Below, in pieces: positions 14,994 through 23,391 of a stretch of 32,160 bases of DNA. This stretch comes from Promethearchaeota archaeon (GTDB taxonomy: Archaea; Asgardarchaeota; Odinarchaeia; Odinarchaeales; JBHLKK01). The notes beneath the pieces are model-generated. The model was not told where the DNA came from and searched no databases. It saw only the letters and a list, made by a program, of their open reading frames with translations. The position numbers and the translations under genes were made by a program. Numbering within the stretch: position 1 is the stretch's first letter; every line of letters begins with the position of its first letter. The DNA lies in the NCBI GenBank assembly GCA_048939565.1, contig JBHLPJ010000002.1:1-32160 (forward strand). Direction: 5' to 3'.

Positions 14994-15839
14994 TCAAGTT
15001 CCAATCTGTACGTGTTCACCAATTTTTCTTAATGTCCTTACAACTGAGAGTGCTGCAAGATAGCTTGTCTTGGGATTGTATGAAGAAGGTACGTTCTCTA
15101 CATGGGTCTTTATGGTACCAAAGTCCCCTTTTGCGGTAATCTCATGCACGTTTTTATGTACCGTTGGATCTGCGACTATTCTGACCCTCGTTCTTTTGGC
15201 CCCAATCCCTGCCAAGCTCAAAACCGCAGCAACATTAATGTTCTTTGGAAACGTTCTTGCGGCCTCTTCTGCATTCCCCTCATAAACTACGGTTGGCCTT
15301 TTGATTGAGTCCAGATTAATCTCATGTCGAACGATATAGGGTGCTCCTTTGAGCGCATCAGGATGCTTTCGTGTTGTCAACGTCACTTCGGTAAGATTAG
15401 CAGTCGAAGAAGACTTAACTCCATCCAAACCAGCTAATGCTCCAGACGGGAGATAGACCATCCTATCATTTCTCTCTGCGGTTTTTTCGATCTCTTCAAG
15501 TAACTTTCTATCTACTAGAGCTCCTATGCTTAGTATTAAAAGGTCCTTGCCTGAGTTAAGAATTTTGATTGCATGTTTTCTAACAACTTCCTGAGACGCT
15601 GCTTCTATGATCAGATTAATCCGGTCGCTTTCGATAAGTTCCTCTGGTCTTTCAGCTACTTTGGGTTTTTTGGCCATTCTCTGAATACACTTCTCAGCGT
15701 TCTCCTTCAGTAGATCATAAACCATCACTAGTTCTGTATCCCCTGCTCTGCCGTCTTTGATTGCATCAGAAATGATATTCCCGATTGCCCCACACCCAAT
15801 CAATCCCACTTTGAGTTTCGCCATCTCTTCCGCCAGCAA
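14994..15839 (-). CDS. nadX: L-aspartate dehydrogenase
   Basis: Rossmann motif VGLIGCGAIG. The C-terminal PSGALAGLDG...FPKNINVAA...IVADP....N.H.I...G.FG......EN.PS..NPKTS matches my memory of Thermotoga TM1643. The likely true start is ATG 15824. Confidence 0.88.
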   Translation of the reverse strand: MLAEEMAKLKVGLIGCGAIGNIISDAIKDGRAGDTELVMVYDLLKENAEKCIQRMAKKPKVAERPEELIESDRINLIIEAASQEVVRKHAIKILNSGKDLLILSIGALVDRKLLEEIEKTAERNDRMVYLPSGALAGLDGVKSSSTANLTEVTLTTRKHPDALKGAPYIVRHEINLDSIKRPTVVYEGNAEEAARTFPKNINVAAVLSLAGIGAKRTRVRIVADPTVHKNVHEITAKGDFGTIKTHVENVPSSYNPKTSYLAALSVVRTLRKIGEHVQIGT

Positions 15840-15968
15840 ACTATTTCCTAGAATTGAAAAATAATGATTATGATTTATAAATTAACCGATTGAAAAATTA
15901 AGAAAAGATAAAGCCCCCTTAGATACCGATTTCTAGACCTTCATCTCAAGTAACGGATTGATTTCCCA

Positions 15969-16814
15969 TTATTCTAAGATTATCCTCTCCAAGAGTTCCA
16001 AAAGACTATTTCGTTGAGCTTTCTCTATTGCTACCAAGCCGTAGGTCTTGATACCGAGTACCTCTTCAATTTCTTCAGGAGGGAGCGCGTTCCCGCGATC
16101 CTGTTTGTTCGCAACTCCTATGATTTTTGCATATGGAGCCTTGCTCTTAACCAGCGGGAGGATTTTTTCTTTTGTCAACTTAATATTATCCAGTGTAGAG
16201 TCACAGACTATGGCAATGACTTCTGTTCCTTTAACAAGTATGTCCCAGGCAGCCATGAACTGCTCCTGACCTGCAAAGTCAAATATCATGACATAGTAGA
16301 CTCCTACAGTAACTGTAAGCGGTTCTCTATCGGCGAAGATTGTGGGAACATATTTCATTGGAATTTCTTCTTTTCTCAAGAGGCGAAGTATGGTCGTCTT
16401 CCCGACGCCGCCAAATCCAACCAAAGATAGCTTCACCGGAAGCTTGCTTATGATATCAATCACTTCGTTGTTAAATCCATCGCTTAGCTGGGAGCCGTTC
16501 TCAATCTGATTCTCGACCCCAAACTTCTTAATAAATGAGGTTGTTATTTGCAGCAAAATATCCTGAACTTCTCGTTCTGAATTTGTTCTATCGCTTAGTA
16601 CAGCGAATATGTTGTCGTTTGACTTGAGATAGGAGAAACGAAAACGAACAATGTTTGTGTGTTCGATATTGCCCATTTCCATTCTCTCGGAGGCACCCAA
16701 AATTGTAGGCAGTATTGCGTCCACTGAGATCTCTTTCGATCTTGTGAATGATTTGTGGAAAACCTTACCTCCGACTTTATCTAGTATTAGTACCTCTCGT
16801 ATCAATTGCATCAC
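15969..16814 (-). CDS. Two-domain protein: N-terminal longin/roadblock-like alpha-beta domain fused to an Arf/SR-beta-like small GTPase domain
   Basis: The C-terminal half carries G1 GFGGVGKTT, switch-I T (VPTIF), G3 DFAGQEQF and G4 NKQD (Arf/Sar/SR-beta-type). The N-terminal ~125 aa reads as beta-beta-alpha-beta-beta-alpha (IREVLILDKVGGKVFHKSF ... FRFSYLKSNDNIFAVLSD ... VQDILLQITTSFIKKFG), resembling sigma-adaptin/longin domains. Confidence 0.8.
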   Translation of the reverse strand: MMQLIREVLILDKVGGKVFHKSFTRSKEISVDAILPTILGASERMEMGNIEHTNIVRFRFSYLKSNDNIFAVLSDRTNSEREVQDILLQITTSFIKKFGVENQIENGSQLSDGFNNEVIDIISKLPVKLSLVGFGGVGKTTILRLLRKEEIPMKYVPTIFADREPLTVTVGVYYVMIFDFAGQEQFMAAWDILVKGTEVIAIVCDSTLDNIKLTKEKILPLVKSKAPYAKIIGVANKQDRGNALPPEEIEEVLGIKTYGLVAIEKAQRNSLLELLERIILE

Positions 16815-17083
16815 CGAAGATTTTGATCAATTAAAAATACCTAACCCAACCATTTAATACTTTCGCAACATGGGCACATCTTCTTGTGATAGTCGCAACA
16901 TAATGCAATTAGGATCAGAAGGAATTAAGAGAAGAATCTGTCGTTGGCGTCACTATGAAAATTTTATTATATCCAAATTCTCTTATGTTATATATAAGAT
17001 ACGAAAGAATATACACCCTCTGACTGACCAAAAAAAGGCAGAAAAAGCAATAATAAAAGGGAGTATGTTATGGGGATGATTAG

Positions 17084-18922
17084 TTGCCCAAAACTGCAAA
17101 ATATATGTTTAAGATAATCACTGTCGGAGATGGAATGGTTGGCAAGACCAGTCTTATCCTACGATTCACTGAAAATACCTTTAGGGAGACCTATAAAAAG
17201 ACCATAGGGGCCGATTTCGCTATTAAGAATGTTGATATTGACGGGATTATAGCTAAACTCCAAATTTGGGATTTAGGCGGTCAGGATACCTTTAAGGATC
17301 TACGCAAGATATTCTATCCTGGAGCACGCGGAGCCGTATACGTTTTCGATGTTACTAACCGACCAACCTTCGAAAATATCAGACACTGGTTTAAGGATAT
17401 AGATTCAGTAGTCGGCGATGTTCCCGGACTATTGGTTGGCAATAAGATAGATCTAGCCAGAGAAGTAAGCTATGAGGAAGGGAAAGAATTAGCAGATGAG
17501 CTAGGTATGGACTATCTCGAGACGAGTGCTAAAACTGGAGAAAAGGTAGTAGATGTTTTTAAGATCATGGCGCGAGTAACAGTCGGCGAGAAAGCCGAAG
17601 AAATTCCTACTGGGGTTCCTTCGGCAATATCTCCAAAAATCCCCGGAATCTCTACAGATACTTCAATTGCCTTGGGTCCGGAAGCTGAACTGGAATCCGA
17701 GATCCCTGCAACACCTGCTGACCTGCTTCCAGCTAAACCAGCAATACTTCCTGACGTTGTTATGGATGTTTATGAGTGGATCGAATCACACAGAGACGAT
17801 TTCGTAGATTTATTGAAACGTCTAATAGGTGCTGATACAACCAATCCTCCTGGACACGAGTTCAGAGCAGCCAGAATAATACTGGAAGAATTACTAAAGG
17901 ATAATATCAGATTCAGGGTTTATGAAAGCGAAAAGGATAGAACAAATGTTGTCAGCTGGTCCGGCAAAACTGAGAGTCCTTCTGTTATGCTGGTCTGCCA
18001 TCACGATGTTGCACCGCAAGTTGAGGGGTGGAAGCATCCGCCGCTTGATGCTCTTGAGAAAGATAGCAGGATATATGGGTTAGGAGCTTGCTGCAGCAAA
18101 GGTCCCCTTGTTTCTGCTCTAATGGCCCTTAGAGCGATTCATGTCCTTAATGTAGAACTTAAAGGACAAGCAATGGTCGTGGCGGCCTCCGATGGACTTG
18201 GAGATGGATCAATTGGATTAAAGCACCTCATAGAAGAGGTAGGACTCGTTCCAAATCATGCCATTGTAGCCAGCCCTACAAACTGCAAAACAATAAGAAC
18301 CGTAGAACTAGAGACATTAGCTTTCAGACTTACCAGCAGAGGAAGAGTGTTTGAACCCTCACTTAAGGACATCAATGCTGCCGAGAAACTCGTCAAGGTG
18401 TTAGCAGGATTCAATGATTCTAATGGAAGCAAATATCCGACGCTCGCCAAATGCTCGATTAACATAAGGGAGATCAGAGGAATGCCTGGTGTTGGCGGCA
18501 TTCCTGAGTGGGCAGAGGCAACTCTAGATATTCGTCATCTATTCAAGGAGAACAACGAAAAGATACTTGACGAGGTTCGAAAATTGATTGATAATACCAA
18601 GATATTGGATTCCGATGTTGACGTGTCCATCGAGCAATTACCCGAACCTCCAAAAATCGCCTCTTCAGTCGATGCTCCTGTCGTAATGGCGGTTCGAGAT
18701 GGTTTATATAATACTGCCAATCAAGAACCCTCTTTCGCCGAAACCAAAGAGAATGTCTTGGCGAAAATCTTGGTTCAAAGTAAAATACCTGTGTGCATAT
18801 TTGGCCCAGGTAATGAAGAGAAGTGCAACAGTCCGAACGAGTATATCGAGATTGATGATATGATCGAGGGTGCTAAGGTTTTTGCTGCATCGATAATTAC
18901 TTTGCTAGGGATTAAAGACTGA
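17084..18922 (+). CDS. Rab-like small GTPase fused through a Pro/Ala-rich linker to an M20 (ArgE/DapE/CPG2-type) metallopeptidase-like domain with degenerate active site
   Basis: GTPase domain (aa 1-168): GDGMVGKTS, TIGADFAIK, WDLGGQD, GNKIDL, ETSAK. Linker: aa ~169-225. M20 domain (aa ~226-612): N-terminal LLKRLIG..T.NPPG, VCHHDVAP, W.HPP, IYGLGACCSKG, FGPGNEEKCNSPNEYIEIDD. TTG start at 17084, with ATG 17105 as an alternative. Confidence 0.85.
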   Translation: MPKTAKYMFKIITVGDGMVGKTSLILRFTENTFRETYKKTIGADFAIKNVDIDGIIAKLQIWDLGGQDTFKDLRKIFYPGARGAVYVFDVTNRPTFENIRHWFKDIDSVVGDVPGLLVGNKIDLAREVSYEEGKELADELGMDYLETSAKTGEKVVDVFKIMARVTVGEKAEEIPTGVPSAISPKIPGISTDTSIALGPEAELESEIPATPADLLPAKPAILPDVVMDVYEWIESHRDDFVDLLKRLIGADTTNPPGHEFRAARIILEELLKDNIRFRVYESEKDRTNVVSWSGKTESPSVMLVCHHDVAPQVEGWKHPPLDALEKDSRIYGLGACCSKGPLVSALMALRAIHVLNVELKGQAMVVAASDGLGDGSIGLKHLIEEVGLVPNHAIVASPTNCKTIRTVELETLAFRLTSRGRVFEPSLKDINAAEKLVKVLAGFNDSNGSKYPTLAKCSINIREIRGMPGVGGIPEWAEATLDIRHLFKENNEKILDEVRKLIDNTKILDSDVDVSIEQLPEPPKIASSVDAPVVMAVRDGLYNTANQEPSFAETKENVLAKILVQSKIPVCIFGPGNEEKCNSPNEYIEIDDMIEGAKVFAASIITLLGIKD

Positions 18923-20642: not shown

Positions 20643-21548
20643 GTGTTAGTAATGATAATCTACGGCGTATCGGATTCTGGTGATCTAGACGAACTAAAGG
20701 GAGATAGACCAATTAAGGATTATTTAGTCAGCGACAGAGTTCTTATTTTAATAGATGATGATTTGAAGAAAATTTGGATATGGAAAGGTAATAGTGCCCC
20801 TGTTCGACAGAAATTTATTAGTGCGCGAGTGGCAAATCAAATAAGACAGGAAAGAGGATTAACCTATAAGACTTTGAGCATTGATGAAGGTGAAGAATCA
20901 CAAGAGTTTCTCGATTCAATTGGAGCCAAACCAAAGAAAGCTCCCCGTCCTGCGCTTCCAGCTGAGCCCAAACCTCCTATGCCCGTTGCAGCTCCCACTC
21001 CTGATCCAACTCCCAAGTCTGCTCCAGCACCGGCTGCTCCAGCTCCCGCGCCAATAGTCAAACAGCCTGAAGCACCAAAAACACCTGCAACCTCAAGAGT
21101 CACTTCGCCCATGCCCTCTCCCACTCCAGCAGTAGTTACGCCTCTTGAAGCAGAAGTAATATCGAAACTTGAAAGAGTCGAAATCCCTCGCGGATATGAA
21201 AGAGAGTTGGTCATCGTTGGCAACGAGGTATATGCAATCACAGAATATCGAACGATTTTCTTGGGGGAGAAAAAGGTTGAAACAAAATTAGAAAAAGCCT
21301 CTAAGCTACCAGAGGGAATATTCTTTGCAGAAGGTTACACACCTAGAGTAATAGTGGACAAAGGTCGCGTTCTGGCTGTGGAATTCTTGAAAACAGGTAA
21401 GGGAGTTGAAGTCCCTGTCAAGGATACTACTCCTCGTTCACTGCGAGATGAAATGAAATTGCATTTGAGCGATCTAGTCGATTTCTTTAAAATCGATATC
21501 CCCAAGAAAGAGAAGAAGCTAAAAAGGGAAAAAAAGGGAAAGAAATAG
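20643..21548 (+). CDS. Gelsolin/cofilin-fold domain protein with Pro-rich linker, unknown C-terminal domain and Lys-rich tail (1DGelX-like architecture)
   Basis: In aa ~5-95, SDRVLILIDDDLKKIWIWKGNSAPVRQKFISARVANQIRQERGL.YKTLSIDEGEESQEFLDSIG fits the gelsolin-repeat pattern (yil...iyvW.G..as..ek..a...a..i......v.eG.E...F...f). A PxP/AP-rich segment follows (aa ~95-168), then a beta-rich ~120-aa domain and the tail KKEKKLKREKKGKK. Confidence 0.7.
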   Translation: MLVMIIYGVSDSGDLDELKGDRPIKDYLVSDRVLILIDDDLKKIWIWKGNSAPVRQKFISARVANQIRQERGLTYKTLSIDEGEESQEFLDSIGAKPKKAPRPALPAEPKPPMPVAAPTPDPTPKSAPAPAAPAPAPIVKQPEAPKTPATSRVTSPMPSPTPAVVTPLEAEVISKLERVEIPRGYERELVIVGNEVYAITEYRTIFLGEKKVETKLEKASKLPEGIFFAEGYTPRVIVDKGRVLAVEFLKTGKGVEVPVKDTTPRSLRDEMKLHLSDLVDFFKIDIPKKEKKLKREKKGKK

Positions 21549-21603: not shown

Positions 21604-21996
21604 GTGTCATCTGTAAAAATCACTCCTGAAAAAGCAAAAGAATTGGCCAATTATCTTAGTGAGATTACCATGAAAACCGAATTAGAGGCTCTGGCCTGTG
21701 TTACGCGTGAGGGACAACGACTTGCTTTCAAAACTGTTGGCTATGAAGTTGAACCGGATCTAATGTCAGCAATTTCAGCTGCCATGCTTCATGTAGGAGA
21801 GACTGCCGTATCAAGAATGGGCTTTGGAGATCTTTGGGAGGTTATTGTCACAGGAGCGGAGGGCTATATAGTGTTATCTGGAGCGGGAAAGCTGGTCTTG
21901 ATAGGTGCTGGGAGATCTATGACTAGTCTCGGCAATACTGTGAGTGTATTTAGAAATTATGCAAAAATGGTTGCCAATCTGTTTCCTAGCAAGTAA
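21604..21996 (+). CDS. Roadblock/LC7 (MglB-like) domain protein
   Basis: 130 aa. LEALACVTREGQRLAF...DLMSAISAAML..GE....MGFGDLWEVIVTGAEGYIVLSGAGKLVLIGAGRSMTSLGNT follows the Roadblock/LC7 profile. GTG start preceded by AGGGAG. Confidence 0.75.
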   Translation: MSSVKITPEKAKELANYLSEITMKTELEALACVTREGQRLAFKTVGYEVEPDLMSAISAAMLHVGETAVSRMGFGDLWEVIVTGAEGYIVLSGAGKLVLIGAGRSMTSLGNTVSVFRNYAKMVANLFPSK

Positions 21997-21999
21997 TTC

Positions 22000-23391
22000 T
22001 TATTCTTTGCTGCTTTTGCTGAGGAATTCAATAAGTTCTGATAGCCTTGTATCCACTTTTCTTAGGTAATCATTTGCAGTACCAATATTCTTTGCTTCAA
22101 CAGTTAGACGTATTATTGGCTCGGTTCCAGAAGGACGTATCAGAATCCAGCCTTCACTCAATAGTAGACGCAAACCATCAACCTTCTGTACTTCGGTGAT
22201 ATCCTCCAAAAGCGAGGCTGATTCCTTTTCCAAGTCGTCCATTAAGGATCTTTTTAGCTTGTCGGGGCATTCAATTACCCCTCGTAAAATAGGATATTTG
22301 GGTATTGATGAGACGAATTCACTGATGTTAACCCCATCATGGGCAAGGAATTCAAGCAACTTTCCTACAGTGAGTAAGGAATCCGGTCCGTAGTGAGCCT
22401 TGGGCCATATGAATGTTCCACAAGCTTCTCCACCAAGCATACCTTTGCACTGTTTGATCTTTATGGCAACTTGAATATCACCTACGGGTGTTCGGAAGAC
22501 TTCACCGCCAGCTTCGTTTACTACTTCATCGATCACCATGCTGCCATCTATAGTAGTAACGGTCTTTCCGTTACCACCGTTCTCAATCTCTCTTTTGGCC
22601 AAGGCTGCCAGAAATCGATCCCCCTCGATAACTTTTCCCCTTTCATCCGTGAAGACAACCCTGTCGGCGTCACCATCGAAAGCTACACCTAGATCGGCAG
22701 AAGTAGCATTCACCAAAGCAGATAGATTCATCAAATTCTCTTCAGATGGAATAGGATCTCTGCCTGGAAAAAAACCATCCCCTTGGGCATTCAGGCTAAT
22801 TACCCTGCAACCTAATTCTCTCAACAATCTAGGTGCTATTTCATAAGCTGCTCCACACCCTGGGTCAACAGCTAACTCGAATTGTCTTCTTCCAATGCTT
22901 TTGGCATCAACACTCTCCCTTATCATTTCTATATGGGTGGAATCTGCAGTCTCTATGTTTTGGGTTTTCCCCAAGAGATGCCAAGGTTTCAGCGAAAAGG
23001 CCTTCCTAGTGTATATTCTTTCAATTTCATGCTCTTGCTCAGACGTAAACCCCATTCCATCGGGATTCCACAGCTTTATGCCAATTGCGGGTGGTGGGTT
23101 GTGAGAGGCAGTTATCATGATACCTGATGATACATTCAGGTGTTTTGTAGCATAGGCAAGAGTTGGTGTGGTCACGATCCCGGTTTTTAACACTGTACAT
23201 CCTGTGCTTAGCAGACCCGAGGTGATTGCAGATTCAATCGTTTTCGCAGCTGTTCTTGTATCTCTACCTACTACAACTGACTTTGAAGTAGCGTAAGTCC
23301 CCAGAGACGACCCCAATCTTAGAGCCATCAATGGCGTAAATTCGGTGTTGAATATACCTCTAATGCCGGATGTCCCGAAAAGTTTTTCCAT
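22000..23391 (-). CDS. Alpha-D-phosphohexomutase (archaeal phosphoglucosamine mutase / phosphomannomutase type)
   Basis: FGTSGIRG, the active-site TASHNPP, the metal loop FDGDADR, and GGE..G. Specificity cannot be assigned by eye. Confidence 0.9.
   Translation of the reverse strand: MEKLFGTSGIRGIFNTEFTPLMALRLGSSLGTYATSKSVVVGRDTRTAAKTIESAITSGLLSTGCTVLKTGIVTTPTLAYATKHLNVSSGIMITASHNPPPAIGIKLWNPDGMGFTSEQEHEIERIYTRKAFSLKPWHLLGKTQNIETADSTHIEMIRESVDAKSIGRRQFELAVDPGCGAAYEIAPRLLRELGCRVISLNAQGDGFFPGRDPIPSEENLMNLSALVNATSADLGVAFDGDADRVVFTDERGKVIEGDRFLAALAKREIENGGNGKTVTTIDGSMVIDEVVNEAGGEVFRTPVGDIQVAIKIKQCKGMLGGEACGTFIWPKAHYGPDSLLTVGKLLEFLAHDGVNISEFVSSIPKYPILRGVIECPDKLKRSLMDDLEKESASLLEDITEVQKVDGLRLLLSEGWILIRPSGTEPIIRLTVEAKNIGTANDYLRKVDTRLSELIEFLSKSSKE

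Follow-up and report, generated by a model that had tools for sequence, protein, structure and literature searches.

A short-form fusion of a longin domain with a probable ArfL-group GTPase in an Asgard archaeon

The gene on the minus strand of the window (by which we mean the whole stretch of 32,160 nucleotides that was analyzed) very probably encodes a longin domain fused to a Ras-superfamily GTPase of the ArfL group, i.e. the common N-terminal-longin form of ArfL. Fusions of a longin domain with an Arf-like GTPase have been described in Asgard archaea since 2016, and the architecture is therefore real but not new. According to Dey et al. 2016 (PMC4917890), Klinger 2016 found Arf-like GTPases with a fused longin domain in five cases in Lokiarchaeum. 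Similar Asgard architectures were reported by Liu 2020 and by Tran et al. 2024, who modeled 74 GTPases of Prometheoarchaeum syntrophicum MK-D1 (PMC10933270), and longin N-terminal domains are found even on true Asgard Arfs (AArfs), as described in Nat Commun in 2025 (PMC11914678). The novelty that a preliminary description of this DNA had implied for the fusion is thus not borne out by the literature. The gene and the elements flanking it are the following:

15969..16814, minus strand: whole gene, probable longin-ArfL GTPase (stop codon at 15969-15971; from the list of open reading frames)
16831..16839, minus strand: TATA-like TATTTTTAA, 17-25 nt upstream of the GTG (read from the sequence)
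15893..15913, minus strand: T-rich tract after the stop codon, putative archaeal terminator (read from the sequence)

The open reading frame, the strand of which the preliminary description had not given, comprises 281 amino acids when counted from the GTG, which is directly followed by an ATG one codon on, at 16811. Because homologues start with MIRE or MLRQ and the alignment puts those starts at residues 4-7, and because the protein itself is recorded in databases at 280 and 278 amino acids, translation more probably begins at the ATG at 16811 than at the GTG. The position of the TATA-like TATTTTTAA suggests a leaderless or short-leader transcript. The T-rich tract is a probable archaeal terminator, and since it follows the stop codon, the gene looks monocistronic; the next gene, nadX for aspartate dehydrogenase, lies beyond a gap of 129 nt at 15839. 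The reading frame is not a chance one, because 97 homologues were found and 13 G-box positions are invariant.

The N-terminal part of the protein is organized in a domain of its own:

16446..16814, minus strand: longin domain, residues 1-123 (AlphaFold2 secondary structure, Foldseek against the PDB, AP-2 σ profile match)

We modeled the full-length protein (with 34 sequences) and residues 1-122 alone (with 27 sequences) using AlphaFold2. The full-length model reached a mean pLDDT of 83.8 and a pTM of 0.80, and the isolated domain, which assumes the same fold as in the full-length model, a mean pLDDT of 84.6 and a pTM of 0.80. As assigned by DSSP on these models, the domain comprises five β-strands (residues 5-12, 17-22, 50-55, 58-65, and 68-75) and three α-helices (residues 31-43, 80-98, and 107-123). 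Their order, β-β-α-β-β-β-α-α, corresponds exactly to the longin topology, without an N-terminal helix. The rhythm proposed in the preliminary description (β-β-α-β-β-α) was correct in being longin-like, but the model shows one strand and one helix more.

A Foldseek search of the PDB with the isolated domain returned 57 matches at E ≤ 1e-3. Longin-type domains account for 49 of the best 50 (E 5e-6 to 4e-4), the sole exception being 5x6u_B. The longin matches include the σ subunits and μ N-terminal domains of AP-1, AP-2, and AP-3, ζ-COP and δ-COP, as well as Sec22b, Ykt6, and the TRAPP core-complex chain 2j3t_C. The best query TM-score (0.78, with an rmsd of 2.6 Å) was obtained for VAMP7, and the SRP-receptor chain 2fh5_A appears at rank 48 (E 3.7e-4). 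On the sequence level, AP-2 σ matches the profile of the domain with an E-value of 6.7e-5 over residues 1-98 on both sides, including a common MIR start, followed by the AP-2 μ N-terminal domain, VAMP7, and MON1. The Pfam families Longin, Clat_adaptor_s, and Fuz_longin_1 score below their gathering thresholds for the target, weakly but consistently across family members. The only nearly invariant polar residue of the domain is Arg-6 (91% conserved).

As judged from these models, residues 1-123 fold as a canonical longin domain, which bears out the longin-like N terminus of the preliminary description. A roadblock fold was ruled out for this domain: roadblock domains start with a helix, the model lacks an N-terminal helix, and 5x6u_B is the only non-longin structure among the best 50 matches. 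The coat-adaptor subunits (σ-adaptin, the μ-adaptin N-terminal domain, and ζ/δ-COP) provide the best profile match and the top of the Foldseek list; SNARE longins reach equal or better TM-scores, and in its modeled structure the target domain resembles longin domains in general. No GTPase fusion is known for these σ/μ-adaptin and ζ/δ-COP proteins, which belong to the structural core of coat adaptors. The preliminary description had also cited σ and ζ subunits as acting on Arf1, which is loosely worded, as the contacts of Arf1 are mostly with the large trunk subunits.

When the profile of the N-terminal domain was searched against 1.84 billion representative proteins, 658 were retrieved at E ≤ 1e-3, 108 of them with E ≤ 1e-10. 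These proteins measure ∼60 to 874 amino acids and nearly always carry the domain at residues 1-120. About 60 of the 130 top representatives of this longin family carry a small-GTPase domain, and the others are stand-alone or fused elsewhere. Judged from these sequences, the varied fusions fit the extensive shuffling of domains reported for eukaryote-like Asgard proteins better than a preserved ancestor, and the variety of partners together with the stand-alone longins argues against the fusion as a uniquely preserved ancestral state.

The C-terminal part of the protein is a small GTPase domain with intact G boxes:

15972..16445, minus strand: small GTPase (G) domain, probable ArfL group, residues 124-281 (Pfam Arf, TIGR00231, BLASTP against ArfL, Foldseek)
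16392..16418, minus strand: G1/P-loop GFGGVGKTT, residues 133-141 (seven of nine positions, Gly-133 and Gly-136 to Thr-141, invariant in 34 homologues)
16341..16346, minus strand: G2/switch I, Pro-157 and Thr-158 (Thr-158 conserved in 97% of homologues)
16245..16280, minus strand: G3/switch II DFAGQE, residues 179-184, with the catalytic-type Gln-183, plus Trp-190 (conservation in homologues)
16098..16109, minus strand: G4 NKQD, residues 236-239, guanine-specificity box (invariant in 34 homologues)

The motifs quoted in the preliminary description are all present, GFGGVGKTT, DFAGQE, and NKQD at the positions above and ITTSFIKKFG of the longin domain at residues 90-99. The target possesses the whole Arf-type G-box signature, GxxxxGKT(T), DxxGQ with a tryptophan at +7, and NKxD. 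Across the 34 homologues, the P-loop, Ser-206, and NKQD are invariant; in G3, Asp-179 (91%), Gly-182 (97%), Gln-183 (97%), and Trp-190 (94%) are highly conserved, as is Arg-268 (94%). Gln-183 and Trp-190 lie seven residues apart, as do Gln-71 and Trp-78 in Arf1. Judged from its sequence, the G domain has its nucleotide-binding and catalytic motifs intact and shows no sign of a dead enzyme.

Among Pfam families, Arf matches the C-terminal half best (1.9e-15, residues 127-257), ahead of Roc (1.1e-10) and Ras (3.3e-10); the NCBIfam model small_GTP (TIGR00231) matches with 4.5e-16. The best match by sequence to a solved structure is GerdArfR1 (8OUN/8OUM; E 2.6e-12), closely followed by RhoA and then by Arl1, Arl8, and Sar1. 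In the Foldseek comparison, the G domain aligned with GTP-bound GerdArfR1 (target TM-score 0.75-0.77, rmsd 2.6 Å) and with GTP-bound Arl1 (0.77), so that the model is nearer to GTP-form Arf-family structures (0.75-0.77) than to GDP-form Arfs (0.57-0.62). Confidence of the model is lowest in switch I; the adjacent residues 159-162 have a pLDDT <50, as expected of a mobile switch loop. An Arf-type N-terminal amphipathic helix, which in Arf proteins rests on the interswitch when GDP is bound, is absent from the protein, only longin helix α3 preceding β1, and a C-terminal lipidation motif is likewise absent from the target.

As the DNA was probably assembled from a metagenome, we considered whether the protein might be the product of a mis-assembly or of a mis-called reading frame, or a pseudo-GTPase; nothing specific points to such an artifact. 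The two-domain architecture recurs in many independent assemblies and lineages. The named sources among the 97 homologues are all Asgard (Hodarchaeota, Ranarchaeia, Odinarchaeota, Promethearchaeota/Lokiarchaeota, Thorarchaeota, and Hermodarchaeota), and in a genome scan with one genome per species, 79 of the 80 loci were Asgard, including the complete chromosomes of Lokiarchaeum ossiferum and Atabeyarchaeum. The exception is a weak match to the G domain only, in a Chloroflexota MAG. Together with the frequent GTPase partner of the longin family, every G box being intact, the conservation data effectively refute an artifact or a dead protein, to which we assign next to no probability.

For assignment to a GTPase group, we compared the G domain by BLASTP with the sequences and labels given in Table S3 of Vargová et al. 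2024 (bioRxiv 10.1101/2024.02.28.582541). In this table, the label ArfL is carried by Helarchaeota proteins with the layout MI(H/R)...GFGGVGKTT...DFAGQE...NKQD...VAI, by Lokiarch_05490 and Lokiarch_05440 of Lokiarchaeum GC14_75, and by one of our homologues, TFG24326.1 (P0032). Seven of the ten ArfL sequences taken from Table S3, including the two from Lokiarchaeum, share 37-49% identity with the target G domain (E 1e-32 to 3e-45), and the other three share 32-33% (E 6e-18 to 7e-25). All ten outscore every non-ArfL sequence in the comparison. The GerdArfR1 fragment follows with 35% identity (E 7e-16), and human RhoA, Sar1A, and Arf1 with 28-35% (E 2e-13 to 5e-11; Arf1 ∼29%, 5e-11). The two best RagGtr matches show 31-34% identity over 67-104 amino acids (E 4e-6 or weaker), and the best MglA match shows 23% (E 1e-4 or weaker).

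In a bootstrapped neighbor-joining tree, which is crude, cannot fix deep positions, and contains only two archaeal ArfR sequences besides human ones, the target falls amid ArfL, in a subclade with Odin and Ranarchaeia orthologues (97/100). The node uniting only ArfL is weak (23/100), and ArfL is joined to Arf, Sar, and GerdArfR1 at 96/100, with the MglA sequences as outgroup. Because of these two nodes, our own data define the distance between ArfL and Arf only loosely. However, ArfL lies outside the Arf/SRβ clade in two published maximum-likelihood trees, one of which is the 2025 Nat Commun tree, in which ArfL neighbors the Rag and Rup2 clades (PMC11914678). Because of the affinity to ArfL and the exclusion of ArfL in both published trees, the G domain is, on present evidence from sequence, Arf-like in its motifs yet probably not of the Arf/SRβ lineage. 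The "Arf/SR-beta-type" label of the preliminary description consequently is not supported in the phylogenetic sense, the Pfam SRPRB family reaching only an E-value of 0.019 (14.8 bits against a cut-off of 25). A clustering with MglA, which the same description had set against its own proposal, was not found; but the domain groups with the prokaryote-only ArfL, not with Arf.

Under the opposite reading, the evolutionary one of the preliminary description, the protein would be a genuine GTPase of the Arf/SRβ lineage, retained in the fused form that an ancestor of the eukaryotic pairs of longin regulator and GTPase may have had. This reading could draw on Arf as the best Pfam match, on the Asgard ArfR GerdArfR1 as the best solved-structure match, on the Arf-like NKQD, GKTT, and tryptophan seven residues after the glutamine, on the 96/100 node of the crude tree, and on σ-adaptin as the best sequence match of the longin domain. 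It is at odds with the position of ArfL near Rag/Rup2 in the 2025 tree, with the missing N-terminal amphipathic helix that is a hallmark of Arf, and with the occurrence of the same longin family on its own or in fusion with many other domains, and we regard it as very unlikely.

Like members of the ArfL group as annotated by Klinger et al. 2016 and by Vargová et al. 2024, such as Lokiarch_05490 (KKK45962.1) and Helarchaeota NVM28342.1, the target possesses an N-terminal longin-like domain with an MI(R/H) or MLR start and the motifs GF(G/S)GVGKTT, WDFAGQE, ANKQD, and VAI; the G domains are 37-49% identical, and the distribution is confined to Asgard archaea. ArfL proteins fall into length classes of 273-288 amino acids (the class of the target), 344-346 amino acids with a helical tail, and ∼450 amino acids. 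In contrast to the best-known Lokiarchaeal ArfL proteins (344-346 or ∼450 residues, with the extra helical tail), the target is short and lacks a C-terminal extension; it belongs to a Hod/Odin/Ranarchaeia subclade of ArfL. With the Asgard ArfR/AArf proteins (GerdArfR1, 8OUM/8OUN; HodArfR1) and eukaryotic Arf, Arl, and Sar1 it shares GKTT, DxxGQ with tryptophan at +7, and NKQD, whereas its identity is only ∼35% to the GerdArfR1 fragment and ∼29% to Arf1, the amphipathic helix is lacking, and the grouping is with ArfL.

Rag/Gtr proteins also consist of a small GTPase covalently linked to a platform of the roadblock/longin superfamily, and in the scheme of Tran et al., MK-D1 proteins of this build fall under "Rag-like but close to Arf" (PMC10933270). 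In Rag/Gtr, however, the G domain comes first, is followed by a C-terminal roadblock domain, and carries HKxD as its G4 box, whereas the target starts with the longin domain and carries NKQD; the opposite domain order noted in the preliminary description is thus correct. Membership in a reverse-order Rag/Gtr family was ruled out, as a Pfam Gtr1_RagA match is absent from the target (and weak in some homologues), the RagGtr BLAST matches are weak, and the platform is a longin domain.

The longin or roadblock fold is likewise paired with a small GTPase in SRX/SRβ, MglB/MglA, Mon1-Ccz1, TRAPP, and FLCN-FNIP, and two of these systems turned up among the matches of the target longin, through the SRP-receptor chain 2fh5_A and the longin domain of MON1. 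These systems differ in that they are made of separate polypeptides with a platform that is usually a dimer, whereas the target is one chain, and the similarities of the target to SRPRB and MglA are below threshold. An SRβ-type GTPase was ruled out on the basis of the sub-threshold SRPRB score, the low rank of 2fh5_A, and the location of the longin domain in cis. MglA was ruled out by the weak BLAST matches and by its outgroup position in the neighbor-joining tree.

The neighbors of the gene on the same strand encode aspartate dehydrogenase, NadA, and NadC, followed by subunits of pyruvate:ferredoxin oxidoreductase. On the opposite strand, head to head over 270 nt, lies a gene encoding a fusion of a Rab-like GTPase with an M20 deacylase, and beyond it follow an NAD(P)HX repair enzyme and then a 301-amino acid protein and a weak roadblock protein. 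This layout of NAD biosynthesis and GTPase-M20 genes is kept in the closest named relatives (Hodarchaeota MFX0096260.1 at 91% identity and an orthologue at 82%) and lost further out. Judged from these relatives, the gene is probably that of a Hodarchaeales-like archaeon, from the lineage now ranked nearest to eukaryotes. In orthologues from Odin, Ranarchaeia, and a JGI contig, the longin-ArfL gene shares 4 nt with a conserved gene for a coiled-coil protein of 166-220 amino acids, these proteins having a C-terminal motif in common, and small coiled-coil reading frames come after the Atabeyarchaeum and Jordarchaeales homologues. A coiled-coil partner gene was not found in the window by tblastn and motif search, and is absent from the two closest relatives.

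Because G1-G4, Thr-158, and Gln-183 are conserved at 91-100% in the 34 homologues, the protein would be an active GTP/GDP switch. In the AlphaFold2 model, three residues lie between longin helix α3 (residues 107-123) and β-strand 1 of the G domain (residues 127-133). Since α3 leads straight into β1, the longin domain may be rigidly coupled to the G domain, and the full-length pTM, which is as high as that of the longin domain alone, suggests that the two domains keep a fixed orientation toward each other. The longin domain could then serve as a built-in platform for dimerization and/or for the binding of a helical partner, and the nucleotide state would control the assembly of the complex, by analogy to a Rag GTPase with its platform at the opposite end. 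SNARE and adaptor longin domains bind helical peptides. In the Rag, MglA/MglB, and TRAPP systems, GTPases sit on roadblock/longin platforms, and Tran et al. 2024 predicted dimers for those GTPases of Prometheoarchaeum syntrophicum MK-D1 that are fused to longin or roadblock domains (PMC10933270). We counted these dimer predictions, the translational coupling of the distant orthologues to the coiled-coil gene, and the small coiled-coil reading frames of Atabeyarchaeum and Jordarchaeales in favor of a partner-binding platform, and the absence of the coiled-coil gene from the window and the closest relatives against it. Because we found no biochemistry on any ArfL protein in the literature searched, this mechanism rests on analogy, and we propose it tentatively, as plausible but somewhat short of probable.

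Because it lacks both the N-terminal amphipathic helix and a lipidation motif, the protein is probably soluble or recruited via partners, and its sequence makes membrane binding by itself unlikely.

The fixed interdomain packing that the full-length pTM suggests could also be read in terms of a self-regulating GTPase, a possibility raised in the preliminary description, in which the longin domain binds the switch regions of its own chain as a built-in GAP, GEF, or autoinhibitor, modeled on SRX of SRα on SRβ-GTP and on MglB on MglA. The structural match to the SRP-receptor chain 2fh5_A and the conserved arginines (Arg-6, 91%; Arg-268, 94%) would be in keeping with such a role, and longin/roadblock modules are known GAP/GEF platforms (PMC10933270). 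However, the three-residue linker between α3 and β1 sets the longin domain beside the N-terminal end of β1. The switch face of small GTPases is on the side of the domain away from this end. Furthermore, the model shows switch I with its lowest confidence and not as a docked element, and known longin/roadblock regulators work in trans as dimers. Self-regulation in cis is therefore unlikely in our view.

A bolder reading would place α3 in the role of the Arf N-terminal helix, so that nucleotide-driven movement of the G domain would be passed on to the partner-binding groove of the longin domain, which would open or close. On the basis of the model, we consider this relay improbable. If true, the protein would be a single-chain "regulator plus switch," and a living model of the first coupling of longin and Arf-like domains before the split into the trans-acting pairs of eukaryotes.

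Longin/roadblock platforms and small GTPases form the core of eukaryotic membrane traffic and nutrient signaling, and the Asgard fusions of longin or roadblock domains with GTPases count among the eukaryote-like proteins invoked to argue that the pairing is older than eukaryotes. The gene described here leaves the current picture unchanged, as the architecture is published and the trees give ArfL no direct link to eukaryotic Arf/SRβ. It adds a short-form member to the longin-ArfL proteins, which, being compact (281 amino acids) and well predicted, would provide a convenient construct for the first biochemistry on ArfL.

The longin-ArfL gene (encoding a 281-aa Asgard Arf-like GTPase with an N-terminal longin domain) stands head-to-head with a second GTPase gene:

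Window 17084..18922, + strand: Rab/Ras-like GTPase–M20 fusion, 612 aa

The fusion protein comprises a Rab/Ras-like GTPase part (aa 10–164; Pfam Ras, 5e-51), followed by an ArgE/DapE-type M20 metallopeptidase part (aa ∼240–605). It is kept at full length in Hodarchaeota (85–91% identity) and also in Jord/Freyarchaeia (575–586 aa, 35–37% identity, 99% coverage). Full-length relatives from Odinarchaeia comprise 552–581 aa with 29–30% identity, and Pfam no longer detects the M20 domain in these proteins. At two homologous loci, L001 (a Hodarchaeota relative) and L006, the GTPase–M20 gene is still divergently paired with the longin-ArfL orthologue.

At three further homologous loci, the orthologue is followed downstream by a coiled-coil gene:

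L002:6822-7463: coiled-coil gene
L003:6831-7331: coiled-coil gene
L004:4528-5190: coiled-coil gene

These loci come from Odinarchaeota, Ranarchaeia, and a metagenome contig of JGI; in each, the start of the coiled-coil gene overlaps the stop codon of the orthologue by 4 nt. The encoded proteins (166–220 aa) give weak CdvA-like coiled-coil matches and share the C-terminal motif L(E/S)DLEF(N/Q)(Y/F)xxGFxDxx(E/D)Y. We consider them candidate binding partners of the longin domain. By tblastn and motif search, no coiled-coil gene of this type was found in the window.

Small coiled-coil ORFs also follow the ArfL gene in Atabeyarchaeum (L007; 138 aa, beginning 15 nt past the stop codon) and in Jordarchaeales (L011; 112 aa, beginning 2 nt past it). 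Both feature an LDxxxxxGxIDxxxRD-type motif, and the L011 ORF appears, from reading the sequences, to resemble that of L007. The L007 ORF additionally matches L003:7339-7641 (BLASTP, 4e-8).

A separate longin-ArfL subfamily (289–298 aa) occurs at L033, L034, L036, L048, and L050, where an ORF of about 585 aa lies 42–137 nt downstream. Inspected by eye, the ORFs at L036 and L050 look phosphoglucomutase-like, with a TASHND motif. The window also holds a gene of this kind, and its proximity to the longin-ArfL gene may be a coincidence:

Window 22000..23391, − strand: PGM/PMM gene, some 5 kb away from the longin-ArfL gene

Two other proteins of the window, both conserved at L001, are further candidate eukaryote-like proteins:

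Window 20643..21548, + strand: 301-aa protein, not assigned to any family, sole hit gelsolin (0.064)
Window 21604..21996, + strand: 130-aa protein, weakly matching Roadblock/LC7 (E 4.5e-4)

The sole ArfR (the Asgard group allied to Arf) of Lokiarchaeum GC14_75, Lokiarch_19980/KKK44255.1 (Vargová et al. 2024, Table S3), is extended at its N terminus by about 190 aa, beginning MLNNIFFLKGKK. This extension could be a longin-like domain. If so, N-terminal longin fusions would occur in ArfL and ArfR alike, in agreement with the remark that longin N-terminal domains are present even among true Asgard Arfs (PMC11914678).
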